IMG/VR virus record: IMGVR_UViG_3300045988_027877
Location: 39,851 to 103,850 of that record
DNA length: 64,000 nt
From: a virus
Direction: 5' to 3' (one strand)
The notes beneath the pieces were generated by a model. It saw only the letters and a program-made list of their open reading frames with translations. It made no database searches and was not told the DNA's origin. Shown here in pieces: positions 3,175 to 61,416 of this stretch. Every line of letters starts with the position of its first letter. The first letter of the stretch is position 1. The position numbers and the translations under genes are program-made.

Positions 3175-3450
3175 ATGAAATATATAGTAGTACCAGCTGA
3201 AGAGCTGATTGACATAACACAAGAAACATTAGATGAATTACATTTAGTATTTCGTTATAGTGTAGATGGAACTAAAGTAATAATGAAAGTTGCTAACTAT
3301 GAATTACTATTCCCATCAATAATGACTTTACCATTAACAGATGAAGATGAAGTTACAGAAGTAGTATATCCTTATCCTACTTATGAAGGTGACGCATTGG
3401 AAGAACTGTTAAACAGTGATGAATGGACTAATAAAGAAGAACAACTATGA
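3175..3450 (+). CDS. hypothetical small acidic protein
   Basis: Intact 91-aa ORF, co-oriented, stop TGA. Its stop overlaps the next ATG (ATGA). Confidence 0.55.
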   Translation: MKYIVVPAEELIDITQETLDELHLVFRYSVDGTKVIMKVANYELLFPSIMTLPLTDEDEVTEVVYPYPTYEGDALEELLNSDEWTNKEEQL

Positions 3451-3977
3451 GAGAAACTATAAATTTCGTACCTAGTAAGTCAACCCCCAATCACAAAGAA
3501 GTACAGTATTGGATAGACTTACAAACTGATCCATATGGTAGATGTATTAAAACATGGACTGGATCTGAATGGAGTACTATTACTGATAATGATTTGATTG
3601 AGACTATTTAGAAAGAACTAGACAGTAAAGCTAATAAAGCCACTACTCTATCTGGTTATGGTATTTCTGATGCATATACTAAAACTCAAGTAGATGCTAA
3701 AGTAGCATCAGTATATAGAGTGAAAGGTTCTGTAGCTAATTTCGAAGCACTACCTGCTACAGCTGTAGTTGGTGATGTATATAACTTAACAGATACTGGA
3801 GCTAACTATGTATGTATTGTAGCTAATCCTGCTGAATGGGATAAGTTATCTGAAACAGTAGACCTTAGTCATTGTGTAGCTTCAGATGATGTATCTAATG
3901 TAGTTGCTATGACTCAAGCTGAATATGAAGCTCTACAGACTAAAGATTCTAAAACACTTTATTTAATTCACGAATAA
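3447..3977 (+). CDS. tail-fibre-like protein (TAG read through)
   Basis: ATG at 3447 is in the same frame as listed ORF 3720..3977, through one in-frame TAG (3609-3611). Fibre-type motifs LSGYGISDAYTKTQVDAK and TLYLIHE are present. Stop TAA. Confidence 0.7.
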
Positions 3978-3978: not shown

Positions 3979-5220
3979 ATGAAACTAGGAGATAGAAATA
4001 TTATAGCTGCATACTTAGGTGATGTGAACGTATTCACTAATTACTATGGCGTCAGCTTTCCTCTTGAACCTCAGAATACTATTCTAACTAGAACAGGTTA
4101 TATGCCTTGGCATAAAGAACTACCTATACAGTCTAAGATGAAGTCTTGCACGATTACTTCTGATGGAACAGTTAAATATCTTAGTGTTACAGATAGAACC
4201 AAGTATGAAGATGGTACTGATAGAGACATGACATTAAATACTATGGTAGAAATACCAGAGTTCTGGTATAAATGTATGAGAGATGATACTACTGTATATT
4301 TGAACTTATATCCAGCAGATCCTCATATTCCAGAAGCTGAACATGTGGAGAAGTTCTATATTTCTGCATATGAAGCATCTAATGTAGATAATGTGTTAAA
4401 ATCTATTAACAATGGATCTATTACTCCAGTAGTAAACATTAATAGAACTACTATGCAATCTAGAGCTAGGGCTAATAACTCCAGTACTACGAATTGGAAC
4501 ATGTATACTTACAGAGCTCATAGAATACTTACTGTGCTTTACTTAGTTGAATATGCATGTACCAACAGTTAGAAAGCTTTCAATGCCGAATTAACTGCAG
4601 AAGGATATCATCAAGGAGGATTAGGAGATGGAGTTACTACAGGTAATATTAAAGTAAATGGAGTTGATACATGGAGTTTTATACCTTGTGGAAGTACAGA
4701 CGAACATGGAAACTCTACTGGTATAACTTCCGTTACTGTTAATAGTACTGACGCAGAAGGTGTTGCAACTCAGAAATCTTATAATGTTCCTACTTATAGA
4801 GGTATTGAGAATCCATTTGGTCATGTATGGAAAAATTGTATAGACACACTTGTACATTTTAATGCACAAACTAATAAAAATGACGTTTATATAAATACCG
4901 ACTTAAGTACATTTGGATCTACTGATATATCTGATTATGACTATCAATGTAGTACTACTATTACTGAAGGTTATAAGAAGAAATTGGTATACAATGCAGC
5001 ATTTGACATACTTCCTCCAATAGATGAAGCATTTGGTGGTAGTACTACAACTTATTGGTGTGACTACAATTGGACTAATAATAGTACAACTGATAGGCTA
5101 ACATTAATAGGCGGTCGTGCTGGTTCTGGCGCGGCTGCTGGGTTGCTCTCTGTTTATTCTGCCGATGGGCTTGGCGCTGCTCATGCTGGTGTCGGTACTC
5201 GGTTAATCTATATACCGTAA
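3979..5220 (+). CDS. DGR target (variable) protein, putative receptor-binding protein with C-type-lectin/FGE-like C-terminus
   Basis: Listed ORFs 3979..4572 and 4984..5220 are in one frame, joined through TAG 4570-4572 with no TAA/TGA between them. Motif YRGIENPFGHVW precedes a Gly/Ala-rich C-terminal VR. Stop TAA. Confidence 0.85.
5108..5200 (+). repeat. DGR variable region (VR)
   Basis: 93-nt match to 5257-5349. It differs at 28 positions, each opposite an A in the TR. The 3' boundary is imprecise; both copies end with ..aatc..ccgtaa. Confidence 0.9.
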
Positions 5221-5256
5221 TTTAATTAAAAATATAGATAGGTTGTTCCTCATCAT

Positions 5257-5349
5257 TAAGCAGTAATGCTAGTAATAGCACGAATGCTAGGTTACTCAAT
5301 GTTAATTCTAACAATGAGCTTAGCAATGCTAATGCTAATGTCAGTACAC
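5257..5349 (+). repeat. DGR template region (TR)
   Basis: Non-coding, A-rich (AAT/AGT/AAC-type triplets) copy of the VR, lying between the target stop (5220) and the RT start (5479). Confidence 0.9.
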
Positions 5350-5478
5350 TGAATCCGTAATTAAACAAATAAAGAAATTAAGAGACTGTAGAGGGAGACC
5401 TTACCCCTTGGTAAAAGATAACATACTAATTAACTGTGTTAGTAACTTTTTTCGTGAAAACTCGGTAATGGATTACAG

Positions 5479-6504
5479 ATGAAAAGATATAATAATTTAT
5501 TTGACAAAATAGTAACTTTAGACAATTTATATCTAGCGGATAAAAGAGCTAGAAGACAAAAACAACATAGACCTGAAATAATTAATTTTGATAAGAATAG
5601 AGAAAAATTACTTTTAGATCTATAGAAGAAATTAATAGATGGTGAATATAAGACTTCTGAATATTATATATTCAAGATATATGAACCTAAAGAAAGAGAA
5701 ATATTCAAGCTTCCATACTATCCAGATAGAATAGTACATCATGCTATTATGAATATTATGGAACCTATTTGGATATCATCCTTCATTAAAGGAACTTATA
5801 GTTGTATAAAAAATCGTGGTATACATAAAGCTCTGAAAGATGTTAAGTTCGCACTGAAAGATGAAGTCAATACAAAGTACTGTCTTAAGTTAGATGTCAG
5901 AAAATTTTATCCTTCAATAGATCATGATATATTAAAATAGCTAATAAGAAGAAAAGTAAAAGATAAGAAATTATTAATTATATTAGATGAAATAATAGAT
6001 TCTGCATAGGGAGTACCAATTGGTAATTACTTATCACAATTCTTTGCTAATTTATATTTAACATATCTAGATCACTGGATTAAAGAAGAGAAACATATAA
6101 AATACTATTTCAGGTACGCAGACGATATAGTAATATTAGGAAAAGACAAAGAAGAACTACGTCAGTTGTTCAAAGACATGAAAGAGTATATTGAAACTAA
6201 ACTCAATATAAAGTTTAAAGACAATTGGCAGATATTCAAAGTAGATTCTAGAGGAATAGACTTTGTAGGATATAGAGTATATCACACTCATGTTCTTCTA
6301 AGGAAAACTATTAAGAAGAACTTCTGTAGAAAGATCAGTAAATTAAACAGAAGAGACGATCTTAGTAAGAGTGAATACAAATAGAAGATCTGTAGTTATA
6401 TAGGTTGGATTAAATATTGTAATGGTAAGAATCTTTTAAGTAAAATGACAAAACATAAAGAGCTATTGGAATACATTAATACAAGTAAACGTAAGAGAAC
6501 CTAA
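5479..6504 (+). CDS. DGR-type reverse transcriptase (TAG read through)
   Basis: One frame runs from ATG 5479 to TAA 6502-6504, with in-frame TAGs at 5623, 5938, 6007 and 6382. It joins listed ORFs 5749..5940 and 6166..6384. The DGR-RT hallmark GVPIGNYLSQ is at 6019-6039 and the catalytic YADD at 6115-6126. Confidence 0.9.
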
Positions 6505-6601: not shown

Positions 6602-7225
6602 ATGTTTATAGAGTTTTTACCACAGATACTTACAGGAATAGCTTCTATCGCAGCACTCTGGTTTACTTATAATCAGTATACTAAAAATAAAATGACTGAC
6701 TATAAGATTGAGAAATGGAGAAAAGAAGAACATCAGAATAACGTAAAGAAGGCTGGTAGCATTGCTACTATATATGGTGAGTTGTGGGAGTTATTATACT
6801 TCCTCAAAGCGGATAGAGTATACCTAATTCAACCACATCCTTTGTATAGAGAGATGTTCATATCTGCTACGCTTGAAGTAAAGAAGTACGGAGTATCTTC
6901 AGTAAGAGAATCTCTATGTGATATTAAGATTGAATCAGTAGCTAACCTCGTATCAGAACTAGCAAACCAAGATTATTTGTTCATAAAAGATATTGAATCA
7001 TCTAATCTGGATAACAAGATTAAATCTATAATGACAAGTAACGGTTGTCATACTACTGCTATACGAAAGTTATCAGACGAAAAGAATAACTGGATTGGAA
7101 GTATAGTAATAGGCTACATTCATGACTTCGATGAAAATGAAGTAGATGTAGAACTAGTAGAAAAAATGTCTAGATCTAGTGCGCTAGCAATCTAGTATAT
7201 ATTACCAGAATTTAAAACAGAATAA
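6602..7225 (+). CDS. hypothetical protein with N-terminal transmembrane helix
   Basis: Listed ORF 6602..7195 is extended through TAG 7193-7195 to TAA 7223-7225. The N-terminus LPQILTGIASIAALWF is hydrophobic. Confidence 0.6.
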
Positions 7226-7874: not shown

Positions 7875-8474
7875 ATGCATAGAATAATCCGTACAAAAGC
7901 TTATGAAGCTAAGCATGGTCCTCACTTTGATGACGAACATGCGCGTAAAGCTGTAAGTAAGATGGAGAATGAGGACGGCTCTAAAGGTCAACACTGGTCA
8001 TTAGAGGAAACTTCTGCCTTAGCTAATCAGTATGGAATTCGTTTTGATGACAAGTTCAACAAATACGATTGGTATGTTGCATTGAATATGGTTTACTCTG
8101 ATTACTATAGAGTGATAGTTAACATGACTGGCTCTAACAACGCTAAGTACTTTGTAGAACTAGCTAAAGCTTGGTTATGTGACAAAGATATCGACGAAGG
8201 TAAGATGTGGTATTACTATATTTATATCATGTGCGACAAGATTAGAGAAGCTGAAGATGAACTCTTCGACAGAAACTACAGCAGATATGAAGATGATGAC
8301 GATGATGAAGCCTACGGTAACTTTCGTAGAGGCGGAAGAATGGGAAGATCTTCATATGGTAGACGTAGAGAATATGACAGAGAATACGACGAGAGGGACT
8401 ATGAGAAGGAGAAAATGTTTCCCTACGAAGATGAACTCAAACGTGGTCGTTCTGTGCGCTACATTAGATATTAA
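7875..8474 (+). CDS. hypothetical protein with Asp-run and Arg/Gly/Tyr-rich C-terminus
   Basis: Intact 199-aa ORF, stop TAA, no TAG. The C-terminus reads EDDDDDEAYGNFRRGGRMGRSSYGRRREYDREYDERDYEKEK. Confidence 0.7.
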   Translation: MHRIIRTKAYEAKHGPHFDDEHARKAVSKMENEDGSKGQHWSLEETSALANQYGIRFDDKFNKYDWYVALNMVYSDYYRVIVNMTGSNNAKYFVELAKAWLCDKDIDEGKMWYYYIYIMCDKIREAEDELFDRNYSRYEDDDDDEAYGNFRRGGRMGRSSYGRRREYDREYDERDYEKEKMFPYEDELKRGRSVRYIRY

Positions 8475-12582: not shown

Positions 12583-13487
12583 TTGATAAACTAACAACGT
12601 CTAAAGAAATAATTGCTAAGATCATAGCCGATTATGATCTTAAAGAAGATGAAATTAAAATAACAGATATTCGAGAATGGATTGGCGAAGGTATGGAAAA
12701 AATAGGTGCGGTACAATAGTTAGAACATAAAGTAGCTAATCTGAAGATATGTGACTATCAAGCTAAACTACCGTGTGATTTGTATAGATTAAATCAAGTT
12801 GCATTCTCATTTGAGAATAGTTGTGGTTGGTTACCAATGAGAAAGGTGACTAACTCTTTTGGTATATATAAGAAGTGTGGAGAATGTGATCCTAAGATGT
12901 TGATACAAGATAATGTTTTACTTCCACTAGTAAAGAATATCTTTAACTTAGATAATGATAAGGATGCATTAGAGATACTTAATAGTGATTAGAACATTAA
13001 ACAAACTCTTAGTGCTCTAGTAAATCAGTATACCGTACCTAGTAACAATGGTAGACTTATAGTAGGTAATCCTGCTACATTCAATACTAGTTTACAGTAC
13101 TCTACTAAACCGGGTTACATTACAGTTAATGTACCGTGCGGTTGGGTTAAAGTATCTTATCACGCTATACCTACTGATGAAGATAATATGCCTATGATAC
13201 CAGACCTAACTTCTTATAAAGAAGCATTAATGTATTATATAGGTACAAAACTATTATACTCTAAATGGATAAAAGGATAGGTATCTAATGAGATATACTA
13301 TACAATAAAAAGATCTTGGAATTTTTATAGGAAACAGGCATATGCTGAAGCGATGATGCCAAGCACTGACGAAATTAGAGGTATTCAGAATTCCTGGGAC
13401 AGGTTATACCCTGAAAGAGATGAGCATAGTAGTTTTTTTGAATATCTTGGTGATCAACAACATATTTATAATTAGAATAGACCATGA
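12579..13487 (+). CDS. hypothetical virion-block protein
   Basis: ATG 12579 overlaps the previous TGA (ATGA). It is in frame with listed ORF 12780..12992. Four in-frame TAGs. TGA 13485-13487 overlaps the next ATG. Confidence 0.6.
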
Positions 13488-16400
13488 GTAATACATTACA
13501 GACAAATACATTTACAGGAGGATTGAACCTAGATGCTGACATTACTATGGTTCCTAATAACTAGTATCGTTATGCTGAGAATGTTCGCGTTATAACCGAT
13601 ACTGATGGGAGCACTGGTGTACTGTAGAACATACAGGATGTAAAGTTAGTAGAAGGAGGAGACTTTCTGTTCTATGATGAAAAGATACTAGCTACTACTA
13701 CTATAGATAAGTATGGGATTATTATTACTGTAGATGATGCTCATGTAAATAGAATTCATAGAGTAGATAACTATGATAACCCGCCTCTGAAACACACTAT
13801 AGTAGTAAAAGGTAAGCTGGGTTATACTGTAGATTCTAACATTAAGATAGTAGCTAATTACGAATCAGAAGGAATTATTAAACTATACATAGCTTGTCCA
13901 GAGTAGATCATAAAGACTCTTAACATAATGGATGATAAGTATGTATATGTATCTGGTAAAGAGAATTCATATCTTGATAGTGCAGGTAATCTGAAGAATC
14001 CTAGCCTACTAGATATACAGATTTCTGCTTTACTTACTCAACCTGAAGTAACTTCACTAGGAGGTGGATAGTTAAAAACCGGAGTTGTACAATACGCATA
14101 CCAATTGTTTAATGCTCGTGGTTCTAGTACTAATTTCTCTCCAGTAAGTAATGCCATACACTTAACCACTAGTAATGTATCAACAGGTTAGCAGTAGTAC
14201 ATGGGGGCTAATAAAGATATTAACTCTGGTAAGAGTGTTAACTTTACTGTTAAACTTAATGATATTCCCGAAGGATTATTTGATAGTATTAGACTTATAC
14301 GTATACATTACACAGACTATACAGAAGATCCTATTATCGAAGTATTTCAAGAAGCTACTATATCTACTTCTGTTAGAGAGTATAGCTTTACAGATGTAGG
14401 CGGTTCTGCTATCAATACTCTAACTATAGAGGAGTTTAACAAGACATAGGAATCATCATTTGCAGCCGCGACCATAGAAGCTAAAGATAATATTCTATTT
14501 GCAGCTAATATAACTGAAGCTACATGGAAGCCTGATTATGATGCAAGAGCTTATCGTTTTACTTCTAATGGCAGATTGATACTTAAAGGAGCTAGTTCTG
14601 ATTAGGATATAGATGTCACTCTATCTAGTTCTACTCTAAACTCTTATCTAAAAAACATACCAGAGGATCACGATTGTATAAATCCGTATAACTTGACAGA
14701 CTATGCAATGAGCGCTGCTAACGTAACCAAATATAAATTTGGTAGCAATACTCTTGGTGGTACTGGTCTTAATATAGATTATGAATTTATTACTACGGAT
14801 ATTACATTAGACGAGTAGTACCAGAATACTCTATCTATAACTACTAATGTTACTAAGGATAATACGATCAACATAAGTAAGCTAGATGGTTCTCTAATAG
14901 AAACTGTTACTTTAGGTAGCGCATCTGACAGTAGATTTAAAAACTACGCGGATCCATACTTTGCTTCTAAATATAGAAGTCATCATAGAGATGAAATATA
15001 CAGATACGGTATAGTATTCTTTAATGATAAAAACATTGCAACTCCTGTGTATTGGATAGGGGATATTAAGTTTCCACATTGCTATGAAGCGTGTCCTTGG
15101 TATGTAGACAATTAGTCATTGAAAGGAAAACCAATAGGTATTAGATTCAATGTTAGGAATTACCCAGATGGTGCACATACTTATCAGATAGTAAGATGCA
15201 AGAGAACTAAGGAAGATAGAACAGTATTAACACAAGCAATAGTATCAGCTACTGTATCGTATCCGTATCACTCTGTTAGAGATGCTGAGTATGATATAGC
15301 ATCTGAAAATACTAGACGTCCTTACACATTCTTAGGTAACTCATATCAGAAGAATGGCTTCCATGTTACTGTTACTGGTTTTGTTTATAAATGGTTGCTA
15401 GGAGAAAGAGTAGATAGTAGTATAGTAACTCTGATAAGTCCTGAAATAGACATGAACAAAGATGATATGGCTGCTAGTATTAAAGGATGTACAGGTGACT
15501 TGTGTATGTATTTGGATCCTAGAACTAACAGAGTAGTAAATGTTGGTGATAGGAATTACTATGGCGCTTATATTTCTTCCGACAGAACTCAATTAATAGT
15601 AGAGCATACGCAGGTGAGTGGAGAGATGAAATCTCAGAAGAGTGATAAGTATTAGTTTAGAGCTGGTGATTTGGTATCAAGTTCTGATGATTATAATAAC
15701 ATGTTCCTTATATCAATAGATGGTACCATGCAACTAGGACATCAGTTTAATGGTATAACTAATATGATTGGTAAGCGTTATGTAGCTCATTATACTGGTC
15801 TAAGTAATAGTGTAAGAGGTAAGTTTGACATACTTGAGGTTACTAACCCTATGATTATGCAAGCTCTAGAATGGAACGATGCTGTATCTAGACATTCATC
15901 CATTGCTGGAAAGACATACCTAAATGCTTCAGTATCACATAACCAAGATCAAGATAATGGAACTAATGCTAATAAGACTGGTTACTTTGGTAACTGCTTA
16001 GTAATAAATAGAAGTAATAACAACATAGGTGTACCTAATAATATTAGTACAGATATGTCTACTTCTAATAACTTATCTACTAAAGCTAACTCTGGAGTAG
16101 CTTCTGCTATACAGCAGTTCAACTATACTCCATTCACTACACCTGTAGTAAACATTAAGACTACTAATATACCTTATGGTGGCAATACTTATAACGCTCG
16201 TAGTAACTCTATATATATAAGTACTTACAGTAGCCACTTAATAGAGAACGAATCTAGTAGTTATATTAATGTGTTTGGTGGTGATACTTACTTAGGAGTA
16301 CTGGATAACAAGACTGTGATTTATATTCCACAGCTTACAGGAGATAAACAATGTCCAGATACTTACTGTGGTATATCTATATCAGATTACATTCCATTTG

Positions 16401-17626
16401 AAACTACTATCAATATGGCTCTAATGTATGGTCAATCAGCATCTAGAGTTGCAAGTGGCGGATTAGATTACGTTGATCCATATCTAGGTATAACCGCTGC
16501 TGGTGGATCGTATGGAGGTCATAGTCAAGAGAAACCATATTATGCATATAATGATGCATACAGTATCCAACCTGATGCATAGATGTATGCAGTAGATTCT
16601 ACTTACTCTATAAGTAATCTTAAGTCTGGTAATCGAATCAGATATTCTGGTACTAAGACAGCTAATGAAATAACAGATAGTTGGACTAGTTTCAAAGCTG
16701 CTGATTACTTAGATGTAGATTCATCTCACGGAGATATAACTAATCTAAAGAACTTCAATGATTAGTTATTATTCTGGTAGAAGGATGCTGTAGGTATAGC
16801 TGCTGTTAGAGATAGATCTTTGATTACAGATAACGATCAAGCATCACTAGTATTAGGTACTGGTGGAGTACTAGATAGATATGATTATGTAACTACTTCT
16901 AATGGTTCTGATACACCTAATGATAAGAGTATCATTGGTACTCCTAGTGGTTTGTATTGGTATGATGATAGTAAGAATGAAGTATGTTCATATACTAATC
17001 AAGTACAGAAGTTATCTAAAGCGAAGAGCGTACAATCATGGTTTAACGATAATACTAAGAAAGCTAAAGTAAGTATATACGATCCTAAGTTCAATGAAGT
17101 ACAGATGGGATTTGAGGATAAGGATCTAGTGTACAATGAATAGTTACAGCAGTTTTCATCATTCTATACACTTAATCCAGATAACTGCTTGGCATTCCCA
17201 GATAGACTCTTGTATATCAAAGACTAGATGATACAAGAAAATGCAGATTTTCCGTTAAATAAGATGCGTTCTAAGTTATAGATTATAGTTAATAAGGATC
17301 CATTACTTACTAAAACTTATGATAATGTATTCTTTAGTGGAGAGTTCGATAATGTTCAAGAGATGATGTAGGATATTAAGTTTACTACTAAGACTCAAGA
17401 AGGAACTATCTTCAAAGATGATACTGAAGTAAGTAATCCGATAGAACAAAGAGAAGATACATATAGATTTGCTGTGGGTAGAGAGAAAGAAAGTAAAGAT
17501 GATATGTCATTACCGGGTAGAATGAAAGGTAAATACATGATATGTGATTACTTAATTAACTGTGACAATCAGCGTAACTTCAAACTCCCTAATATTAACA
17601 CAACATATAGATATTCATTAGTATGA
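13484..17626 (+). CDS. large virion/tail structural protein (1380 aa)
   Basis: Listed ORFs 14201.., 15119.., 15671.., 16583.. and 16820.. are all in the frame of ATG 13484. The gaps contain only TAG (18 by my count). Stop TGA 17624-17626. Confidence 0.75.
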
Positions 17627-21053: not shown

Positions 21054-24000
21054 ATGGAAGATAACAAATTCATGGTAGGCGCTCCCAAAATGAACGCCAT
21101 GACTTATGGTTCTATGGATACCGTACAAAATATACCTACTACTTCTGAGAGGAAATAGTAGGTATAGGAGTATGATTATGATATACCTTCTAACTTAGCA
21201 GATATATATACTAGAAAAGGCAGTACTGAGACTCCAGAAGAGAAAAGCAACGACTATAACTGGTCTAAGATACTTAACGTTGCTACAGGTATTGCCTTTA
21301 CTCCTAATGCGGGTATTGCAATAAAAGGAGGTTACGATATATATAATAGCCAGTTAGGTCAATCTGTTGTAGAGAAAGCAGTAGAAACAAATATCAGATC
21401 CTTAGAAGGTGATTTAGCCAGAAAAGAACTACGTACTATGCAAAGTATAGAGTTCTTGAAAGACTATGAAGAGAAACTACAAAGATTAAATCAGATACAA
21501 AGTACAGGAGAAGGTGATCCATAGGAAGCAACTCAGTTATAGACGTATTTGGATCAGAATGCTTAGACTTATGAGTTACTGATAAGAGGTAACAGTAAGT
21601 TAGCTCCTCTGTACTACGATGGATTTGAAACAAACAGTATTACTGGAGAGAAAACAACTTCCATAGGATTGCAAGTAGATCCTAAGAAAGTACCATTATG
21701 GGATAGACTTATGCTTAGTATATCTACTATGTTTGATAACAAAGCTGAGGCATACGAGGAGTACGTTAAAACTGGTTATGGTGATGCTGTATTAAATATC
21801 AAGCCTAAAGAAAGTGTATGGAATAATCCTGATAGAACTGGTATTATAAACAGTTTGTAGAAGTTATATGATGATAGTATAACATCTCAAGAACTTAAGG
21901 TACAAAAGATTAAAGACAGACAAGGTATCTTAAAAGAAGGTAGCTGGTTCTTTGATCCTAATCAAATATCTCCAGAGTTTAGAGAAAGAGTAAACAATAA
22001 TGAGTTTGCTTGGGGAGATCTAGAATCTTATCCTTACGCAATACCGCAGTTAGGTTCTTCTTTAGGAGAAATTGCTTCTACTGTAGAAACTGCTACTCTT
22101 GGTAGACTAGTAAGTATGGCTGCAAAAACTGCCGCTAAGAGAGGAAATCCCTATTCAGCTGCTTTGTTAGCTATCGGGGAGTTTGGTTTAAATGCAGCTA
22201 ACAGTTATTATCAGCGTACTCAAGAAACCAATGCTGAAGTATTTGATGCTTACTTGAATAACATAGTAAATCAAATGGATTCAGGTAATCTGGATGTAGA
22301 TAGAATATTAGATCAAGGTATCGAGAAACTACAGGCTAGAGGGATTAATACAGATGAAATGACCATGCCATAGATTCTTGAAGATATGCTTCTGTACAAT
22401 ATCAAAACAGATGATCCTAACTTTGAGAATATAAAACTTAGTGCATACAATGGTCTGGATAATATCTTTACTTCTAACATGGCTTTAGGAGTATGGGATG
22501 CCATGGATATAGCTTTATACTCTTATGGAGGTAAGCTTGCTGTGAAATCAGCAAAAGAGTTACTCAAGCAGGGAGGTAAAGGTTTAGCTAAAGCCACTGG
22601 ACTTACTAAGGTTGCGGATATAGCCGATAAGTTTATAGATAACAGAATAAACAAAGCTCTATACAGAATGGCTTCTAAAGACGTATTTAAAGCCAATAAG
22701 TATAGAGATGTACTTAATACTGTGGTAGGTTTAGGTACTAAACTTGGAGTAACCGCATTCGGAGAGGGTACAGAAGAAGGACAGCAGTACTTAATTCAAA
22801 GAGATTACGAATTAAGTTCTAAGTATGATCCTAAGAAGATGACATTGCTGGATGCATTCTTTAAGAACTTCCAATATGGTGCAGAAGCCAACATGGCTCT
22901 GATGGGTTTACATCCTGATGAAGCTTTGAACAATGACAAAGAACTAGAGCAGAACATGAAAGTTGGTGCTCTTATAGGTTTGTTAATGGGTGGTGCTGGT
23001 ACTACTATATCTGATGGTCATCAACTTATTAGAGATGTGAAATCTAATAAGATGTTACGTAACATGGCTGCTTATGACATTAGTAATAAAGAAGAAGATA
23101 TTAAAGTAGACAGATGGTATAATGCAGTAAAGAAGGGTTATACCCAAGATGTGATTCAGAATCTTCAAGACATTAGAGATAGATTTACTCCAGAAGGTCT
23201 TACTCAAGAAGATATAGATGAAGATATTAAAAAAGCTAGACAATTAGAGAGTATATACTATAATCCTAATGTATCTGAGAACTTAGAACAATTAGGAATT
23301 AAAGTAGGCAGTGAGGAGCATAAGACGTTTGCTAAGAATGCAATGAAAGCGTATGACTTAGAACGCGTGTTTAACTCTCAAGCTAAGGAAGCCAACAAGA
23401 AACTTGCTGAAAAAGTAAATCAAATATATAGTTCTGATGAGTTTAGAAACTCAGTGGATGAGTATTGGGATAATTTGTCTGATGCAGAAAGAGAAGCATG
23501 GGGAGTTAAAGAGAACCTAATTAGTATAGTAAGAGATGCTCAGTAGACATTCACTACTCTTAATGTTCTGAATAAGCTGAAGAGACAGCTCAAAGACATG
23601 CAATCCTTTATTGCTCAAGCAAAGAAGAACGGTCTGGATGTTAGTGACGAGAATATAGCTTCTGTAGTATATCACATTAATCGTAAACAGAAATAGTTAG
23701 AAGATGCTACTAAGAAGGATAAGAAGATGTTCAAATAGCTTAAAGATATATTTGGAATCAATACTGATCCAGAACTAGAGCAATTAATAGCAGATGAAAA
23801 TATACTTGTTGGATTACTTAGTAAGGCTGTAAACCGACGTGCTGCATATTAGAACGGAGTAGTACTCAGAACTGATATGAACAGACGTGCTGACTTCAAC
23901 ATTCGTAACTGGTCACAATTATCAGAACAAGAACAACAAGAAGTACGTGATAGATATACAAAAGAAGCACAAGACAACGGTCAAGAAGCTCCTAGCGATA

Positions 24001-27000
24001 GATCTATAATTGCTAGATACAATAGAGATGTACAGCAAAATGATATTATAGACGAGTCTGTAAATGCTGCTAGAAAGTATGCTAATGATATTATTAAGGC
24101 AGATCTTGATAGATATACTTAGAATGACAGATCTTATAGTGAAGTAAGCGAAATAGAAGATGCTCAGAATGAGGATACACAAGATACTCAGATGATATCA
24201 GAAGAAGAGCCTGACTTTACTCCAACTGGAGAAGGAGATAACTCTGGATCTCAAATAGCATCAACTGACTTAGATGTTAAGCAGAGAGAAGAAGAAACTA
24301 GTCTGGTAGAGGATGTATACACTGAATCTGAAGAAGATAAGTTAATTGCTAAGGATGAAGAGACTGGAGACATAGAAGAGATGGATATAAGTGATCTAGT
24401 TACTGTAGCAGATGATGCTGAAGATGTATCAAACGAAAGAACTGTTGATGATATAACTGAAGAGGAGATAACTAGAGATACTAAAGACGATACACAAGAT
24501 AAGATAGATATGGAAAATCTTATGGATGCATCTAACTTTAGAGATCCTGACGATGACTTTGGTTTAACATCTGATGATAATCCTTTCTTAGATCCTCAAA
24601 CAGAACCCGAGATTCCAGATGCTATAAAAGCTACTATGATAGAAGATCAACCAGAAGAACTTCCTTTCATTGATCCTGTAGCTCTAGAAAGATCAGCAAA
24701 TAAAGCATTTCCTGATGCAGAGGACTACTTTATAGATAATCAAGGTAGAATGTTCTTGAATGGTAAAGAGGTTACTAAAGAACAGATTGAGAAAGAGAAT
24801 CTAGCTGAACAATACTCTGATGATTCTACTAAGACCCTATCGGAAAAAGCTAATGAACAGGAGAAGGAAAAGGGTATAGTACCGGGTCTTTCGTCTTCTA
24901 CTAGCATAATGAATAGTTGGTTAGTAGGAAGAACATTATTTTATAGACCAGATGCTACTAAGCCTATGGATCTTCCATTCAAAGTAAAAGGAGCAAAGAA
25001 TATACACTCAGGAAAGGAGTTAGGAGAGGCTATGGGTGATCCTAATTTCTTATCTGATGCTAAGGTATACTTTGTTCCGGGACCCACTATGTCTTCAAAT
25101 GAAGCTGCTTTTGATCCTAATGATCCAACTACATATAGAAATGCAGCTGTCTACATGATTATAGACAAGAATGGAGAGATATATGCTGCGGCATATAGAA
25201 GCAACGCTAAAGCTGCAATCGACTATCAACACAGACTAGGTAGTGTACCTAAAGAGTCTAAAGCTGCCGAAGACTTAAATACTCTTGCTGCTCAAAAAGA
25301 AAAGATAGTATCTTTCTACTTATAGAAATGTAAGAAGGACAAGAATGGAAAATACGTACTACCAGAAGAAGGACTTACTCATGTAGTACCTACTCAAGTA
25401 AATGTATCTAATGGTACATTTAATAACCAAAAAGATGGTAATAAACCTATCTTCAGAAAGTTATCTGAATGTAAAACATTCCAGATTCCTTTGGATCCTA
25501 ATAAAATATTGACTGAATGTACATTTGGTTATGGAGTCGGTGGTATTCAAGTAGGTTATAAAGCGGATCCGTTTGCTATTAAACAGTTAGGTACTGATGA
25601 AGTATTAGCTAGTAGTGGAGGATTTGCCGGTAAGATGGCTATATTTCCAAAGCCTTCTGCTACTCCGAGAGGTAGATATACTGTTCCAGTATACTTGAGC
25701 GAAAAATTCTTTAGAGACGAAAGTATTAAGAAGCCTTCTGACATTAAGTTGAGAAGTCACGATGAAGCTGGAAATCCTACTCCTAATGGATCATATTCTA
25801 ACTTTATGGAATATGTACTTGATTTGATTACAGATGGTGATCCGTATGGAGTACTACCGTTGATAGTTAATCAAGGTGAGAAAACACGTTTATCAGCTAA
25901 GAAACAGGAAGAAGTACAGTTCCTAGCTAAAAAGCAATTAGGCTTTGATCCTGAAACAGAATTGTTCTACTTTGCTAGTCCTAGAAGTGATAGAAATGGT
26001 CTATACTTTAGAACTGATGTACCATTAAGTGAAGTAAAGACTAACCCGATGGCTAGAAAGGCTATCTTGTGGTATATGATGTAGAACTATCACTGGAACA
26101 TGGATAAGAATGTTCTTAGTCAATCTTTACCAGAAAGACTTAGAGATCTTGCAATTCGCGTACTTGAACCGGGAGATGAAAAATTAGTGCTGTATCCCGG
26201 AGAGCTTGAATTTACTTTAGCTGAATTAGGTATTTCAGAGAAAGAAGGCAAACTAGTAAAAGACAAAGTTGCTCCACCGGCAATAGCTTGGGCGGTTAAT
26301 AGTGGTAAATTGTTAACCGATATGGGAGACTATGCCTTTAGAGACGGTTTTATATACGCAGAAGACATAACTGTGAATGAAGCTCAAACTCCAGTATCAG
26401 TATCTACTGAACCGATTAGTGTAGCACAACCTGTTGAGACTAAACCAGAGCCAGTAAAAGAACCAGAAGTACAGCCTGAGAAACCAGTAGAGGAAAAGGT
26501 AGAAGAACAACCTAAAGTAAAACCTACTTCTGAAAATCGTCAAAGTAGAAGAGCTAAGGCTCAAGAGCTAGTAAAATCTCTTAACCAACCTGATGCTAGT
26601 GCACCTAAAGTAGCTAGATATATGACTAGTGAGGAACGTGAACAATTTGCTGCTTCTCTTGGTTAGAAGGTATCTAAGGAAAACTTCGTATATCTATATG
26701 ATTTGGATGGTAAACCTCAGATGTTCATAAAATCTATGTTAGAAAAGGTATTCAAAGAAGTTGGGTTAGAACCTACTTTCTATGTTACTGGTATGTATTC
26801 TACTGAGGAAAATGAAGTAAATAGAATATCTCAAGACTTACGTGAAGCTAAATCTTGGTTGATGGATAAACTAGGTCTATCTGTAGACCAAGTAATGGTA
26901 TTCAACGGAGTAATGAGATCTGCTTCTAATGGTCCTAGAGTATATGGTGTTACTAGATTAGCTGCTAACGGAATAGGTAATATTATCCTTGGACAAGGTG

Positions 27001-30000
27001 CTGGGAAAGGTATTCAGTATCATGAAGCTTGGCATTATATAAACCTACTTGTACATTCTCCTAGAGAAAGACAGATCGTATACGATGATTATGTAAAACA
27101 TCATCCTGAATATAAGAATGCTTCTATAAATGAAGTAGAGGAAGCTATGGCAGAAGACTTCCGTAGCTGGGCTATTGTTCAGAATGCTAAGTGGTATAAT
27201 CTTGGTTACTAGACTATTAAGCTATTTAGAGCCATAAAAGACTTTGTTAAGTCTATGTTCAATATATCTGATAGTCTCTATACTACTATATATAAAGGTA
27301 TAAACAAGGGAAGATATTCTCAATATGAACTGAACTCTGTATCTATGGAGGAATTCCATAAGGCATTTACAGACAATGGTACATTCTTCTCTATACCGGG
27401 AGTACCTCAAGACAGATTGAAGAACATGCCTTCTATCATTAATCCAGATGTATTTTATAATGTATTAGACTCACTTACTAGTACATTGTTATCTGTGTTT
27501 AATGTTAGACAAGCATCTGATATATCTAAGTTAACAGAGAATCTAGATTATATTCCTTCTATTATAGAGGGAAATATGATGGCTGGTCTTACTCCTGAAG
27601 AGAATGAACAACTTATTGAAGAAGTACTTGATAACTGGGATATCTTCAGAAAAGAAATGGCAGAGCAACTATCTACTCTGAATATCAAAGCTGAGGAAGT
27701 AGAGGTAGATAAAAATGGTGATACAGAAGGACAGAATAATAATGAGAGATATGATAGAGTTGCTTTTGAATTCTCAAAGAAGCTCAATATGTCTTTCAAC
27801 GCTAAGCTATTCTTTTACTCTATTCCTAAAATGGAATATGATAAGAATAAAGAACTAGTGCCTGTAGTAGATCCTATCTTTGGACTCAATATGACTGAAT
27901 CCTTTGATGTGTCTTGGAATAAAATAATGGAAAACCTATGGGATATCGAAAGATGGGAAGATCTAGAATCTAGATGTTTAAGACTTGGTAATGCCGATCC
28001 TTTCTTTAAATCTCTATATAACTACATTAGTGGAGATAATAAACCAGATGAAAACACTTGTACTCAAATACTTACTACTATTAAAAGTGCTAAAAACGAG
28101 ATGACTTCTATAGAATTTAAGGAAGCGTTCGAAAAAGCAAACAGTAGAATACAAGATGAGGATTTAGTATTGGATGTAAAAACATCAATGAGAGCTAAAG
28201 CTGGTAAATGGCGAATCCTGGATTCCTCTTTACTTAGATTATAGAATAAATATCCTAGACAATGGGGTAAACTATTCTATGTGTCCGGTATGATAGACAA
28301 GAGTAATCCTAATAAGTTTGAAATAGACTAGGACAAACTTGAGGATTTGAATGTCGACTTTATGCTAATAAAAGAGAAGATAGACGAAATAGCTGCTCCA
28401 TTTACTTCTAAGAGACCCAAAGCCATTACATTCACAGAAGATGATATCCGCAAGGCTAGTGTTACAGCAAAAGAGGAATTAGTGAACTGGTTGAACGGAA
28501 TAGGTATAGACGTAGATATTAAGTCTATAGACTACTTATTATACGGTATGAAGTCAATGAATCCTAAACTACCTACTATTGAAGGATTCGATAAAATGTA
28601 CACTTTACTTAATGACTCTAGTAAAGGAAATATTCGTAACCAGATATTAGGCAACTTAGATGCATTATCTAAGGGAGAAACAAAACTATTAAAGCTAAAT
28701 AATCCATTCCCGGTAACAGAAGACAGTTTTATATAGAAACTGGCTATTGCTCATGGTAAGTCTCACCCAAATCCATCAGAATTTAGTGTAACTGGTCCTA
28801 ATAATACTACAGTATACCCAATAACCTAGAATAACTATATGTCTGATAGAATTAGATGGTTTAATACAGATCCTTCAGAAGTATCAAAAACTAGGAAGGC
28901 TGTGTATAATCGTCACTCTATACTGTTGCAGGCACTAGAAGACGGATCTAAATTAAGTTTAAGTACCTTTATTGCAGTTCGTAACGAAGATAATAGAACT
29001 AGTAGAGATTACTTCTAGATATCTCCAGTAGAGGACTATATATCTAAAATGGTGCTTGCTCATAACGATAGAATACTATTACCTACTATGGCAGATAAGA
29101 AGACATGGTATTCTATTAGTGGAGTTAAACTGTTCCACGATATGTTGTCTAAATCTAGATTAACTGAAAGACAGACAGATACGGGTATACAGGTTCAATA
29201 TGTTGATGATCAGATGTATCATTATTCTGATGATACACTACAGACATTTGCAGATTATTTCCTTGATGAATTTAATGCTATAGAACAGTATTACGCAGAT
29301 AAATCACAAGTAGAATAGAATCCTAATCTTGCTATTGATAATTACCACGGTAAAATAAAGAATGGTAAGATGGATAATATGGGTAATGGAGGGTATTTCA
29401 GATACTTCTCTTCCATCAGAATGAGAGGAGAAGATGGAAACTATAAATACATGCCTTTGAACCAGATGATTTATGCTTGGTCAAAATTTGATTATGATAA
29501 TAATCAAAATCAAATGCCAACCAGACTTAAACAACTTAAAAATACTTTGTTTAGTAATAGAGAAGTATTATTTGATATGATAAATGCAACTCTACAAGAT
29601 AAGGTATAGGAAGAACTTGATTTCTTAGTGGATAAAGGTATAATCAAAAAGTATGCCAATGGTGAATATGAGAACTTGTTAATACCATCTAACATGCTAG
29701 ACGATTATCATGAACGTTCTCGTTCACTTCCTAATGGAGATTCTTCTAAGAGAAGTAAGCCTGCTGCACTTTATTCATTAATTGCAAACCATGTAGCTAA
29801 CTAGATGGTTTCTATTATAGAAGTAGAGAAAGCATTTGTTGGGGATCCAGCTTACTATAAATGGAAACGCGATAAGAAACAACCATGGATAATAGTAGAA
29901 AGATCTGTAGACAAAATTAAACGTCTTGGTTCTGTATTGTCTACTGGAGATAACCTTAGAACTTATTGGGGAGACGGAGATCCTAGAAATAACTCTAAGT

Positions 30001-33000
30001 TTACAGTATTACATATGAGTGATAATGAGGTAGGATCTATCAAGTTTGACGAGTACAAAAAGATGTTTACCGCTGCTGAAGTGATGAAACATATTCAAAG
30101 AACTAACCCAAATATAGACCAGAAACGACTGGTTAATATGGTTAGTAAAGAGAATATTAACAACACTATGAAAACTCTTAATGCTAAAGTAAAGAAAGCT
30201 ATAGAGGATTCAGTAGCTAGACAGATTGCTGCATATGGTATTGATGAAAACGGTAGGGGTAGGATAAACCAAGCCGATGCTGCTGTGTACATTAGACCTG
30301 CATTGTATAAGAGAATTGTCCAAGCAGTAGGAGAATGGTCACCAGAAGTAGAAAGAGCGTTTGATCTATTAGAGAGTCCTGATGAATCATGGTTGTCAGA
30401 TCCTAAACTATACGCACAAGCTATAGAGACTCTTATCAAACCATTAAAGATGGTATACTTTGGTAATCATGAACTCACTAAGTTAGGATTGAATGTACCG
30501 GTATTTGACAAGATGGCTATCTTCCCGATGTTCAGAGTGATGGCAAAAGCAGATAACTATCATCTGTACAATCGTATGAACAATGAAGAACTAGGTGCTA
30601 TTGATATGCTTACTTTTGAATCTGCGGTTAAAGTAGGTGGTAGAAAGAAATTCAAACCATATAAAGATGCATAGAACAGTAGATTTAACTTAGAAGATCT
30701 GAATAAACCGTCCACTTCTATAGTAAATGGTGAGACTAACTTCGAAGGTTTAGATTCTGACAATTCTAAATTGCCTACGTATATTCAAGATTTGCGTAAT
30801 CTTAGATTACAGATGAATACAGATCCACACGAACATACTGATAGATCGTTAGGTACTCAGTTTGCTAAAGTAGCACTAAGTAACTTGGTCAAGAGTAGAC
30901 CGTATGGATTAAATAAAGGAGTAGAATACACTGGTAGATAGATTATAGATAATGTATTTAACTCTATTAATAGGTTATCAGATCTAGGAGCACAGAAGAT
31001 ATACGATGAATTTACTGATGATGGTACGTTATCTACTAGAAAGTTATCTAACTTCTTAATACGTCAAGCTAAAGATAGTGGACTATCCAGAGATGTGGTG
31101 TCTTCTTTCGAAATTGATGAATCCACAGGTCAAATGCGTGTTCCTCTGTCAGCATAGAGTAATAGAAGATTTATCGAAAGTAGGATTATATCACAAGTAG
31201 GAAAGAGAGCTATTGATATCAATACTCCGGGTGGTTCTGCTATCCAACACGCGTTCTTTGGATTTAAGAATACAACTATAACAGATCAAGAATTTGTAGG
31301 TAGAGCATTCAATGATGGTAAAGATCTGAGTCCTTTGAATGAAGACGGTAGTATGGACTGTATGCTTAGCACCAATTTCTTCAGACATGTAGTACCTGCT
31401 TCAGTAAGAAAACAAGGTTATACAGCTATCAGAGAATGGTTAATAGAGAAGAATATAATTGGTCAGAATGCTAAGCCGTATGCATTAGGTTATCGTATTC
31501 CAACGCAGGGTTTATCATCTACAGCATCTCTTAAAGTAACAGATGTACTTCCAGAGTCTATGGGTGATGTTATTGTAGTTCCTAATGACTTTACTGCAAT
31601 GACTGGTTCTGACTTTGATATTGACAAGTTGTATATAGTTACTGGTTACTATGATAAAGATGGTAATTATTTAGAATGTAATTGGGATGATATAGATAGT
31701 AACTCTGAACAACAATTAGTGAATGGATTAATTGATATGTATCGTATTGCTATATCTGACGATACTAACATAGATCAAACTAAAGCTCCTCTTGATAACC
31801 TTACTGAAAAGGTAAAATCAAACATTCTTCCACTAGTAATGGGTACTGCCAAAAATGAAGCTAAACCAATGTATGAATTACTTCCTTCTTATCAGTTGTT
31901 TAAAAAGTTTGAATATACCGGTGGTAAAGATGGTATTGCTCCATTTGCTCTAGCTTCTACTAATCATGCGCTTACTCAAGCACTGAATCTTAGAATGGAT
32001 TTGGGTGAAGTAGCCGATTTATACGACTTAGGTAATATAAATGATATAACTTCTCAGGATGGTGAAAGAATACTTGACTGGCTATCTGCCATGATTAACG
32101 CTCACGTGGACGTTGCTAAAGATCCTTACATCATTAACTTGAATGTTAACTCTGTTACTTATAGTATGACTGAGTTCTTGCTTAGAACAGGTAAGGGAGA
32201 AGCTACATTCTACTTCTTATCACAGCCTATTTTGAAAGATTTTGCTAACATGATTATCAAACTGAATGGTCAATATGGTGTAGATCCTCAAGACGTTTCT
32301 TATAGCCAGTTAATAGATGATACGTTATCTGGTTTAAAGAAACAGTATATGAGAGAGTTTGCCAACTTTGTTGACTCACAATCTGATGAAAATATTAAAA
32401 AGAAATTAAATCAAGAATGGGCAGGTCTATTAGATTTTGAAAGAAGCCCAGATACTCCTAGACGAGCAGTAGATGTAGAGTTACTTAAAAAAGCACTTAC
32501 TTCTAATATAGAGGGAAATAGAGATTTAAACTTCTATCTACAACAAGTATTAGTTGCTACAGCCTATCAAGACATGTTACCATATGCAGAAAGACTAACA
32601 AAATTAGTTAGATTATCGCAAATTGATACTAAGAAATATGGTAATACTTTAGCTCAGTAGGCTAACTATAGTAAATCAGTATTTGATTTTATCAGGAATG
32701 ATGGTGAATTATTCTATCAAACTGATGATAAAGGTGTGAAAATAGAAGATGAAAATCAAAACGCTCTGCTTAACTATTACTCTAATAGCTTCTTGATGAA
32801 GAAATTAAAAAATGCGGTAGATATTCCTAGATTTATATTACATCAAGATTTTATTCAAGCTACTGATATGTATGGTGGTTTGTTTAATAATATGATAAAC
32901 TCTATGATAGGAGAACGAAGTGGAATAAACAAACAATTAGCCATGAAGTTGGATTCCATTGTAGATAGTGTAATTAGAGCTAGAATTGCTAACAGTACTC

Positions 33001-34448
33001 CAGCTATGCATTTAGAGTAGGGAGAACTAAAGGAAATGGTAATGGGTAATAGAACTGTTCCTAAGAGATTACATCAACTTAAGTATGCCATATATAGAAA
33101 TATAAATGGTAGATACGATAACTTGCTTAATGGAGATGGATCAATAAGTAATGCTTTCTTAAATTACCTAATTCCAACTCTAGCTACAGACAGTACAGAA
33201 GGTGGTATTGATGCAATGTCTTTACTTAATAGTTCTATGGCTAACAGTTCTAATTTTGAGAATAGATTAATTGCATACTTTAGTGACTTGATGTCCAGTG
33301 AAGATGCAGCTGTAAGACAATTTGCAAATAGATTAGCATTGTATGCTTACTATACATCTTATGACAATAAGGCTCCAAATACGTTCTCACATTTGATATC
33401 TAGTCAGTTTAGAGTTGATTCAGGTTATGCAGATAATATAAGACAAGCTATAGGTGATATGAATACTGGACAATGGTTAGGAAATGTGTTTAATGAAACT
33501 ATAGACGAACCTACGTTAAGCTCATATCCTTCTATCGCATTAAATATTGCTAGAAACAATGCTTAGGATTCTGAAGTAGTTAAGAATGTAGTTAAACCTA
33601 AATCCAATAGATATAATAGTAAGTCGTTTATATATGCTCCATCCCCGTGGACCGATGGTACAGGTACATACCTTATGTCATTCAGTACTAAACCTAGAAA
33701 AGACGAAAGAGATTTCTTATCTATTGATTATCCTGTTTACGGAAAGAGAAATACTGTATTATATGTCAAAATAGGTAGACTTGAAGTATACGACAAGGAG
33801 AAAGGTAAAAAACTAGGATAGGCTGGACAGACAATATATGCTGCTGTACCTAGATTAGGAATACAGTCCGGATCAAATACAGTAAATGAGTATTATAAAG
33901 ACGCTTATTCTCTATCTGACTTTGATGAAAATAATATAAGTGTGTTATCCTACAAGTATTTAAATGACTTCTTTAATGATCAATCTAAGTATAAGATGTG
34001 GGTTAAAGGAGTAGACAGCAAAAATATAGATATATCACTTATACCAAGTCAATATTTCAACGAACAGTTCAATGCTCATGGATTAGACAGATTAACAGAA
34101 GATGTAGATCTATCAGAGAATTCTGCTGATAACATTATCAGTCAAGAAGTAAATGACGAGAAGCCTACTCAACAGAGTGAGAAACCTAAATCTAAAGCAA
34201 TGGAAACTAAAGAGTTAGATAGAGATATAGCAGCAGAAGCAGGTTTGTTAGATAAAGGTAATTTAATGACTAAAGTAAACCAACAATTACTAATGACAGA
34301 AGCAATGATGGAAGCAGTTCCTTATGAAGATCCTAATGCTGGAGTAGAATCATCTGGTGAAGATATATCAGACATGTTTACTTCTGAAGATGATCTTAAT
34401 GAGGATAATTTCTCAGACGATGCTTATAATAACTGTAAAGGTAAATAA
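21054..34448 (+). CDS. giant multidomain protein (4464 codons) including crAss-type virion RNA polymerase module
   Basis: Eighteen listed ORFs from 21669 to 33942 all sit in the frame of ATG 21054. I translated every gap and found only TAG (about 32), no TAA/TGA. GSDFDIDK is at 31611-31625 and HEAWH at 27021-27035. Stop TAA 34446-34448. Confidence 0.8.
27021..27035 (+). other. HExxH (HEAWH) zincin-like metallopeptidase motif inside giant ORF
   Basis: cat gaa gct tgg cat, in the context GKGIQYHEAWHYINLLVH. Confidence 0.4.
31611..31625 (+). other. DFDID putative catalytic Asp triad of crAss-type RNA polymerase
   Basis: gac ttt gat att gac, in the context FTAMTGSDFDIDKLYIV. Confidence 0.6.
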
Positions 34449-61211: not shown

Positions 61212-61416
61212 ATTTTTGATAAATTGGTTACTAATTAAAAAGAACTGCTCTGTGTATTCATATCTCTTATTTCACAGATAACCCCTATCCTTCTCTCCCT
61301 TTATCTATAGATATATAGATTGCCGTTGAATAGCCGTTACATTTAACATGTATTAGGGTTTTGGTATATTTGCAGTTCTTTGGGTTGATTGGAATCCACC
61401 ATACTAACAATTTAAG

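Follow-up and report, generated by a model that had tools for sequence, protein, structure and literature searches.

A diversity-generating retroelement without Avd that probably writes into two genes of a TAG-recoded crAss-like phage

What is the function of a phage locus in which a tail protein gene is followed by a non-coding repeat of its own 3' end and then by a reverse transcriptase (RT) gene? We studied this question in a stretch of 64,000 nucleotides, hereafter the window, that covers positions 39,851 to 103,850 of the IMG/VR virus record IMGVR_UViG_3300045988_027877. A preliminary description of the letters of this DNA had proposed that positions 3979-6504 hold a complete diversity-generating retroelement (DGR), which copies a template repeat (TR) with errors into a variable repeat (VR) at the C-terminus of a protein encoded among tail-fibre-like genes. 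Our analysis supports the DGR interpretation: the RT has the motifs and the closest relatives expected of the DGR clade, TR and VR differ only at adenines of the TR, the VR is at the C-terminus of a tail protein with a predicted lectin/FGE-like fold, related phages show the corresponding pattern of variability, and a structured RNA separates the TR from the RT gene. We give a probability of roughly 0.93 to the reading that this is an Avd-less DGR of a crAss-like phage with recoded TAG codons, and that it writes two variable repeats, VR1 in the adjacent gene and VR2 in a distant one. The core of the cassette consists of the following features.

3979-5220, plus strand: target gene 1, a tail protein of 413 aa whose C-terminal domain is variable; its in-frame TAG (4570-4572) encodes Gln198 (PHROG, AlphaFold2 (AF2), Foldseek)
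5108-5200, plus strand: VR1, codons 377-407 of target gene 1 (413 codons) (repeat alignment with the TR)
5257-5349, plus strand: TR, non-coding, with 33 adenines (repeat alignment with VR1)
5479-6504, plus strand: DGR RT of 341 aa, with TAG (Gln) at 5623, 5938, 6007 and 6382 (Pfam, PHROG, PDB profile, motifs)

The alignment of VR1 with the TR was recomputed and agrees exactly with the one first described. It runs without gaps over 93 nt and contains 28 mismatches, all of them at TR adenines (17 A>G, 7 A>C and 4 A>T), an arrangement with a hypergeometric probability of 5e-19 given 33 adenines in 93 positions. Five adenines are unchanged in VR1. Substitutions at other TR positions, which had been named beforehand as evidence that would speak against a DGR, are absent from VR1, since the 60 non-adenine positions are all identical. 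The TR adenines fall 19, 11 and 3 times on the first, second and third codon positions, and ten codons are of the type AAY. An AAY-rich register is the classic design of DGRs, which avoids the creation of stop codons. The theoretical repertoire of VR1 amounts to about 7e19 DNA sequences and 2e18 proteins. A scan for open reading frames (ORFs) found none of at least 50 aa overlapping the TR, and no ORF lies between target gene 1 and the TR.

The RT gene starts with the ATG at 5479. Its product matches RVT_1 of Pfam (E 3e-17) and PHROG 1423 (E 3e-121). The closest relative of solved structure is 8ub7_A, a reverse transcriptase of 328 aa that we take to be the one of the Bordetella phage DGR (E 1e-52 over residues 2-323), and group II intron RTs come next (1e-19). 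We located both hallmarks that had been read from the sequence, IGNYLSQ (residue 181) and YADD (residue 213), and they agree with the (I/V)GxxxSQ and YxDD patterns. Nearly all relatives have a full-length RT (341 or 335 aa) that retains YADD.

The product of target gene 1 matches PHROG 5302, annotated as 'tail protein' (E 1e-72). It has no match in Pfam, NCBIfam or the PDB sequence search and was placed by structure comparison alone. The module, of about 400 residues, is present in 1619 clusters at 50% identity, mostly as the C-terminal part of longer proteins. The structure prediction called for by the preliminary description was made with AF2 from 52 diverse homologues and reached a mean predicted local distance difference test (pLDDT) score of 93.8. 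Its solved neighbours in Foldseek are TaqVP (5vf4, E 2e-8), Mtd (1yu0-4, probability 0.85-0.92) and TvpA (2y3c), all of them DGR variable proteins, so the predicted fold of target 1 is that of this class. Predicted viral structures that resemble the model are tail proteins from many crAss-like phages as well as 'tail collar fibre' proteins. The motif YRGIENPFGHVW, noted earlier upstream of VR1, is indeed there and is mostly near-invariant in the 52 homologues. The C-type-lectin/FGE fold proposed on that basis is upheld by structure comparison, whereas the FGE-sulfatase family of Pfam gives no match. The placement of the gene among tail-fibre-like genes is based on one weak Pfam match (Phage_tail_C, in ORF 3447-3977) and on the annotations of relatives. 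By analogy with characterised variable proteins, the part of target 1 that is diversified would be a lectin-like receptor-binding surface.

If the element is a DGR, related phages should vary in VR1 opposite TR adenines and hardly anywhere else. Exact-match scans with the conserved sequence just after VR1 yielded 28 viral and 24 metagenomic loci, and we computed column entropies for 15 distinct genomes whose flanks share at least 95% identity with the window. The mean entropy is 0.06 in the 300 nt upstream of VR1, 0.00 in the 56 nt from the end of VR1 to the start of the TR, which are invariant in all 15 genomes, and 0.08 (0.077) in the TR. In VR1 it is 0.467 overall, with 1.12 opposite TR adenines versus 0.11 opposite the other TR bases. 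The few non-adenine columns that vary are informative: in seven of 11 the substitution is shared with the TR of the same genome, direct evidence that sequence flows from TR to VR. Across some 50 loci of the two collections, a genome's own TR and VR differ at 0-2 non-adenine positions in most cases, and mostly at none. The prediction that polymorphism is confined to positions opposite TR adenines, with constant flanks and TR, is therefore borne out in these related genomes.

Protein sequences show the same. We used P0001, which is 96% identical to target 1 of the window, as the query for homologues, and analysed 117 proteins that are 92-96% identical to target 1. Each of the ten AAY codons carries 2.7-3.5 bits, compared with 0.05 elsewhere; the hypervariable codons of VR1 are 380, 383, 386, 391, 393, 395, 396, 400, 402 and 404. 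The AGY codons of the TR are nearly always GGY in the VRs, which points to selection for glycine and explains the excess of A>G. The two 3'-most mismatches of VR1, at 5194 and 5199, are constant in the 15 relatives, and 5194 is rarely variable in the larger protein set. As position 5199 holds T in every case, a synonymous change, the VR and TR probably have a fixed difference there and not a product of mutagenesis.

We searched databases with two regions of the window, and the classified matches are all from the genus Buchavirus (identities are 77-93% across the DGR region and 86-94% across that of VR2). Over its full length, the cassette region is 85% identical to crAss-like phage cr52_1 (NC_055888), 89% to cr60_1 (NC_055891) and 77% to cr56_1 (NC_055890), and target gene 1 is 93% identical to that of cr109_1. 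These four phages, from human faeces, are classified as Crassvirales, Suoliviridae, Loutivirinae, genus Buchavirus. Both the synteny with Buchavirus members and the TAG recoding of late genes are observed in the window. Judged by sequence, the source phage is thus a member of Crassvirales, family Suoliviridae, in Buchavirus or a close relative of it, with the genes for TerL, portal and major capsid protein falling outside the window.

Does the element serve only the tail protein? A scan of the whole window with the TR, in which its adenines were ignored, uncovered a second VR that the preliminary description had missed.

61544-61948, minus strand: target gene 2, a protein of 134 aa of unknown function, without TAG, in the early/replication block (conserved ORF)
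61665-61726, minus strand: VR2, codons 75-95 and the first two bases of codon 96 of target gene 2 (match to TR 5283-5344, in the same codon register)

VR2 covers 62 nt and departs from the TR at 17 positions, of which 16 are TR adenines (P 1e-9). It is internal to the gene, with residues 75-96 followed by another 38. In 121 homologues, the seven AAY codons of VR2 (80, 82, 84, 85, 89, 91 and 93) carry 2.9-3.5 bits, versus 0.29 in the rest. Since an exact scan with the upstream flank of VR2 gave a single locus, further loci were collected with a more conserved pattern. When VR2 and TR from one contig are compared in 19 genomes (leaving out locus L005, whose TR is eroded), they differ at 313 of 403 adenine sites and at 23 of 775 other sites. 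The TR lineages differ from each other at several non-adenine sites (GCTAGG/TCAGGC/TCCAGT, GTT/CTG/TTG, GAGCTT/GCTCTC/ACACTT, GCT/GCC), and there the VR2 of each genome matches its own TR type; these lineage-specific changes were copied into both VR1 and VR2. The 5' crossover of VR2 is variable. Several genomes match the resident TR type in the 3' part only, and in L070 the converted tract reaches further 5'. This is the behaviour expected of cDNA integration that starts at the 3' end, and integration from the 3' end with a variable 5' crossover has been described for DGRs (PMC5758913). The window and the remainder of cr52_1 yielded no third VR.

The alternative that survives best is that VR2 is not a direct target of the retroelement and is instead a partial copy of VR1, left by an old duplication or kept similar by recombination from VR1 to VR2. 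It would account for cr60_1, where VR1 (L002, about 4705-4797) and VR2 (L060) have the same outcome at 14 of 21 adenine sites and also share a non-adenine T>C change (GCCC). This suggests either a single cDNA pool for both repeats or gene conversion between them, so some exchange between VRs may have taken place instead of independent cDNA events. The lack, in VR2, of the sequence that follows VR1 beyond GTCGG(TACT) also fits a partial copy. However, VR1 and VR2 of most genomes agree at 6-11 of about 21 adenine sites, with five or six near-fixed G in both, and the AAY codons of VR2 vary as much as those of VR1. Moreover, VR2 tracks the TR of its genome at non-adenine positions, sometimes in the 3' part only as fits the 3'-to-5' polarity of cDNA, and the long TR-derived tract of the L070 VR2 has outcomes unlike those of that genome's VR1 in the stretch they share. 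A copy of VR1 is therefore improbable, and we favour VR2 as a second site written directly from the TR.

Target gene 2 is kept in the RefSeq genomes of cr52_1, cr60_1, cr56_1 and cr109_1, as 'hypothetical protein'. In cr113_1 the VR segment is deleted from it, and the match to the DGR region is limited to 47 nt. PHROG 11581 (unknown function) covers only residues 8-72, in the N-terminal half, and Pfam, NCBIfam, PADLOC, the PDB profile search and Foldseek gave no match. In the AF2 model, confident helices flank a low-confidence region (residues 55-95), which makes it too weak in the VR for a fold assignment. A BLASTP comparison with the C-terminal half of target 1 gave just a VR-derived match of 23 residues (E 0.08). 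The gene lies among small genes, between the second and the third of the following RNA elements, all of which score well above their gathering scores.

60216-60318, minus strand: RAGATH-20 (Rfam, 121 bits)
61238-61392, minus strand: RAGATH-9 (Rfam, 120 bits)
63021-63147, minus strand: Hatchet ribozyme (Rfam, 96 bits)

The same minus-strand block encodes a DNA polymerase, an exonuclease, a Sak4-like annealing protein and a sigma-like factor, and this position makes an early, non-structural role of target 2 plausible. A bolder version, to which we give rather little credence, is that target 2 is an early non-structural protein in which an internal loop on a non-lectin scaffold is diversified with the TR of the tail protein.

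The relatives also document how such elements decay. The RT and all of the TR except its 3' end (L004, 5850-5900) are lost in cr109_1, and the RT of L042 is cut at 50 aa. Other loci have an eroded TR, in the expected place about 59 or 54 nt after the 3' motif of VR1. Changes are restricted to adenine sites in L035 (nine), in L046 (five) and in L010 and L042 (a single A>G each), and L032 has one A>G plus one G>A. Erosion is massive in L015, with 27 changes at adenine sites and eight others that leave five adenines, and in L005, where the TR is G-rich and has almost no adenine. Both have G in place of A in the GTCAGTACA element (5343 in the window), and both keep an intact spacer and a full-length RT in spite of their altered TRs. 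None of the eroded TRs is a copy of the VR1 in its own genome. The pattern suggests that the donor itself is occasionally a site of mutagenic homing, a putative runaway self-mutagenesis, with an assembly artefact as the alternative.

One may then ask whether the element of the window is itself a fossil, whose repeats record past activity and which no longer functions in this genome. The losses in cr109_1 and L042 and the adenine-depleted TRs of L005 and L015 show that relatives do reach that state. Against this, the TR of the window has lost none of its 33 adenines and has the sequence most often found in the TRs of relatives, and the RT is full length with intact motifs when TAG is read as glutamine. 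That 28 of 33 adenine sites of VR1 are changed, with no change elsewhere, speaks against long neutral drift since the last homing event. An invariant VR combined with an inactivated RT, the other observation that had been put forward as contrary to an active DGR, is not what the related genomes show. The fossil reading is very improbable, and this particular genome presumably still carries a functional element.

The arguments above take the genetic code of the phage for granted. There is one in-frame TAG in target gene 1 and there are four in the RT gene, at the positions listed above. Under translation table 11 the target is cut at 4570-4572 into 197 + 78 aa and the RT into fragments; the preliminary description, which did not mention recoding, had given 3979-5220 as a gene, and this frame stands if TAG is glutamine and falls under the standard code. 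One might conclude that both genes are pseudogenes from which nothing is expressed, the more so as the window is without a tRNA. Yet ORFs of at least 150 aa span 38.9 kb of the whole window with three stops and 57.7 kb with TAA and TGA alone, and reading through TAG opens three giant ORFs.

13484-17626, plus strand: ORF of 1380 aa that depends on readthrough of 18 TAGs
21054-34448, plus strand: ORF of 4464 aa that depends on readthrough of 32 TAGs
34451-38773, plus strand: ORF of 1440 aa that depends on readthrough of 23 TAGs

The plus-strand genes are rich in TAG and the minus-strand block at 38.8-63.7 kb is nearly free of it, a sharp partition of recoding by strand and module. Close relatives exchange TAG with CAG or CAA at codons 32 and 198 of the target and at codons 49, 187, 229 and 302 of the RT; codon 187 is the Q of the SQ motif, and residue 198 of the target is an invariant Q in the 52 diverse homologues (31-56% identity). 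A further sign comes from cr52_1, in which a tRNA gene with anticodon CTA immediately precedes that of the large terminase, where the late block begins (L089 8288-8363, which is NC_055888 93287-93362). RefSeq labels it tRNA-Gln, and ARAGORN labels it Pyl from the anticodon. ORF calling with the standard code, which breaks both genes, was dropped on the grounds of ORF coverage, codon exchanges and this tRNA. By all these signs the phage is one that reads TAG as glutamine, and pseudogenes are hardly a credible explanation. A tRNA-like element at 48621-48679 (minus strand), just downstream of the DNA polymerase gene, was considered as amber suppressor and rejected: it reaches 35.4 bits with the Rfam tRNA model and has an acceptor stem and a T arm, is only 59 nt long without a normal anticodon arm, and is not called by ARAGORN.

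The idea that the RT is that of a group II intron, a retron or a defence system (Drt/UG), next to a coincidental repeat pair, starts from the RefSeq name 'Intron reverse transcriptase' of its homologues and from weak NCBIfam matches, and is effectively refuted by the scores of these matches, which fall far short of their cut-offs (116/300 for group II, 70/200 for Drt3a, 59/235 for retron, 46/390 for Drt2), by the lead of 33 orders of magnitude of the DGR RT among solved relatives, by the absence of intron RNA domains or retron msr/msd in Rfam searches and of any maturase or endonuclease extension, and by the adenine-specific pattern (P 5e-19).

The sequences around the TR add some elements that a DGR might use, and a further gene comes after the RT.

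5191-5256, plus strand: 3' end of VR1 (GTCGGTACT, candidate initiation of mutagenic homing (IMH) site), the last six codons and stop of target gene 1, an AT-rich inverted repeat and a short intergenic stretch up to the TR (alignment of relatives)
5397-5485, plus strand: structured RNA RT-17 (RF03020) in the TR-RT spacer, overlapping the RT start codon (Rfam)
6602-7225, plus strand: gene after the RT, 207 aa, PHROG 38864 (unknown function), common to cr52_1

VR1 and most copies of VR2 have GTCGGTACT where the TR has GTCAGTACA, a consistent difference that makes these sequences candidates for IMH and IMH*. The inverted repeat is at 5206-5213/5232-5239. RT-17 is also matched at the equivalent site of four relatives (L005, L007, L015 and L002). 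The equivalent position between TR and RT is held in phage BPP-1 by RT-10, which has been suggested to be part of the DGR (PMC5737381).

Several observations weigh against our interpretation. The RT-17 match in the window is barely above threshold (40.8 bits, gathering score 40.4), and the predicted RNA fold of TR plus spacer is not significant alone (z -1.5). There is no GC-rich IMH downstream of either VR, and the short AT-rich inverted repeats after VR1 and VR2 fold, as DNA, no better than shuffled sequences (z -0.85 and -0.47 for the repeat at 5206-5213/5232-5239). Searches of the flanking ORFs (3175-3450, 3447-3977, 6602-7225 and 7875-8474) with Pfam and PHROGs gave no Avd or HRDC gene in the cassette. 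ARAGORN found no tRNA, hence no suppressor tRNA, in the 64 kb; judging from the synteny with cr52_1, it would be encoded in the part of the genome beyond the window. The similarity of VR1 and VR2 in cr60_1 belongs here as well, and the evidence for activity is wholly comparative. As for Avd, it is also missing from DGR lineage 3, found in Bacteroides and relatives (PMC5758913), so its absence does not exclude the element from the DGRs. The cassette can be called complete, as was claimed at first, in the sense of the Avd-less type, with neither Avd nor HRDC.

Other differences among relatives concern the spacer and the end of the cassette. A run of T in the hairpin loop of RT-17 (5450-5456, between AAC and CGTG) has six T in the window and five to nine T among near-identical spacers. 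In spacers of the cr60_1 type, the first stem of RT-17 shows a compensatory change from U-A to C-G (TTACC/GGTAA versus TTGCC/GGCAA). In cr60_1, cr56_1 and cr109_1 the gene at 6602-7225 is replaced by one annotated as a holin, which makes the downstream junction of the cassette a point of recombination.

How would such an element work? The anatomy of the cassette, its adenine specificity, the flow of sequence from the TR to both VRs, the hypervariability at programmed codons and the dependence of the two frames on TAG as glutamine are observed directly; the steps of the mechanism follow the model of BPP-1. The TR would be transcribed together with the structured spacer downstream, whose RNA may serve in priming. 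The RT would copy the TR RNA into cDNA and misincorporate nucleotides opposite template adenines. The cDNA would then replace the homologous DNA at two recipient sites, VR1 and VR2, recognised as targets by GTCGGTACT and distinguished from the TR by its GTCAGTACA. Rewriting VR1 would diversify the lectin-like surface with which the adjoining upstream tail protein presumably binds receptors, at ten AAY codons. Rewriting VR2 would diversify the 134-aa protein, about 56 kb away on the opposite strand, at seven AAY codons. In recoded phages, suppression of TAG is thought to apply late in infection. As target gene 1 and the RT gene contain TAG codons, both proteins could be produced only while a phage suppressor tRNA decodes TAG as glutamine, which by analogy with other recoded phages would set the time of their expression.

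The homologous cassettes of cr52_1, cr60_1 and cr56_1 have the same order of tail protein, TR and RT, with 77-89% identity over the region. Their target likewise has 413 aa, their RT 341 or 335 aa, and the 134-aa second target is also present. Their TR/VR pairs have 22-24 mismatches at adenines and one or two elsewhere. The cassette of the window is distinct from them, being 85-89% identical to the best full-length RefSeq matches. The RefSeq labels in Buchavirus are 'tail protein; similar to sulfatase, major tropism determinant' and 'Intron reverse transcriptase', and the retrieved stretches of the three records have no TR, VR or second target annotated.

The DGR of Bordetella phage BPP-1 (Mtd, Avd, TR and bRT) resembles the element in the adenine-specific rewriting of a C-terminal lectin-like domain of a tail receptor-binding protein, in its homologous RT (E 1e-52) and in the structured RNA between TR and RT. 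Unlike that of BPP-1, the element of the window has no Avd and no GC-rich IMH or hairpin, is in an AT-rich context and has two targets; its RT and target need TAG suppression, and the phage is of a podovirus-like crAss lineage. An Avd-less DGR acting on a tail protein, as here, is known from crAssphage LMMB and other Intestiviridae of genus I (PMC7290462), a family different from the Suoliviridae of the window. DGRs were reported in epsilon (PMC11054128) and zeta (PMC12386605) crAss-like phages, the latter with amber codons within RT genes (PMC12386605), and Suoliviridae are stated to contain cassettes in complete or incomplete form (PMC11054128). They are frequent in gut phages in general (PMC8241571). 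The terms DGR and reverse transcriptase are absent from the text of Yutin et al. 2021 (PMC7886860). Since DGRs have already been reported in crAss-like phages, including Suoliviridae, the core cassette belongs to a known type.

The second target also has precedents. Non-adjacent targets of phage-associated DGRs, rare internal VRs and Avd-less lineages are documented (Wu et al. 2018, PMC5758913), and in Treponema denticola and some phages one TR serves an adjacent and a distant target, with variable 5' boundaries of conversion (PMC5758913). The distant target of our phage is 56 kb away within the window; measured in the opposite direction around the genome, whose size is about 100 kb, the distance is about 44-47 kb. 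This falls at the upper end of the 'within 50 kb' range given for phage-associated DGRs (PMC5758913). It differs from those cases in being on the opposite strand, in the early-gene block and without a detectable lectin fold. In a limited search of the literature we came upon no crAss-like phage described as having a small non-tail protein with a second, non-adjacent internal VR, and no mention of the 134-aa second target or of TR erosion in the Buchavirus group. Of our results, only the second target and the way in which the TR of some relatives is eroded specifically at adenines are potentially new.

With homologous cassettes in RefSeq Buchavirus and DGRs in several crAss-like families, the core element adds little. 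It does provide a clean natural data set, in which 10 + 7 programmed codons account for almost all differences among more than 100 near-identical genomes, in which the flow from TR to VR can be seen directly, and in which the RT and the main target are both gated by stop-codon recoding. The repeated adenine-specific erosion of the TR and the internally diversified small non-tail target may deserve the attention of specialists. Homing into the donor would kill the DGR, which suggests a built-in route to the death of these elements. If target 2 is not a virion protein, it would broaden the known uses of phage DGRs. And if the bolder version of its role were true, the phage would hypermutate its receptor-binding protein together with a second binder that is intracellular or directed at the host, such as a factor for anti-defence or host takeover. 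Phage DGR targets would thereby gain a new functional class, and the scaffold of the variable region might be new as well.

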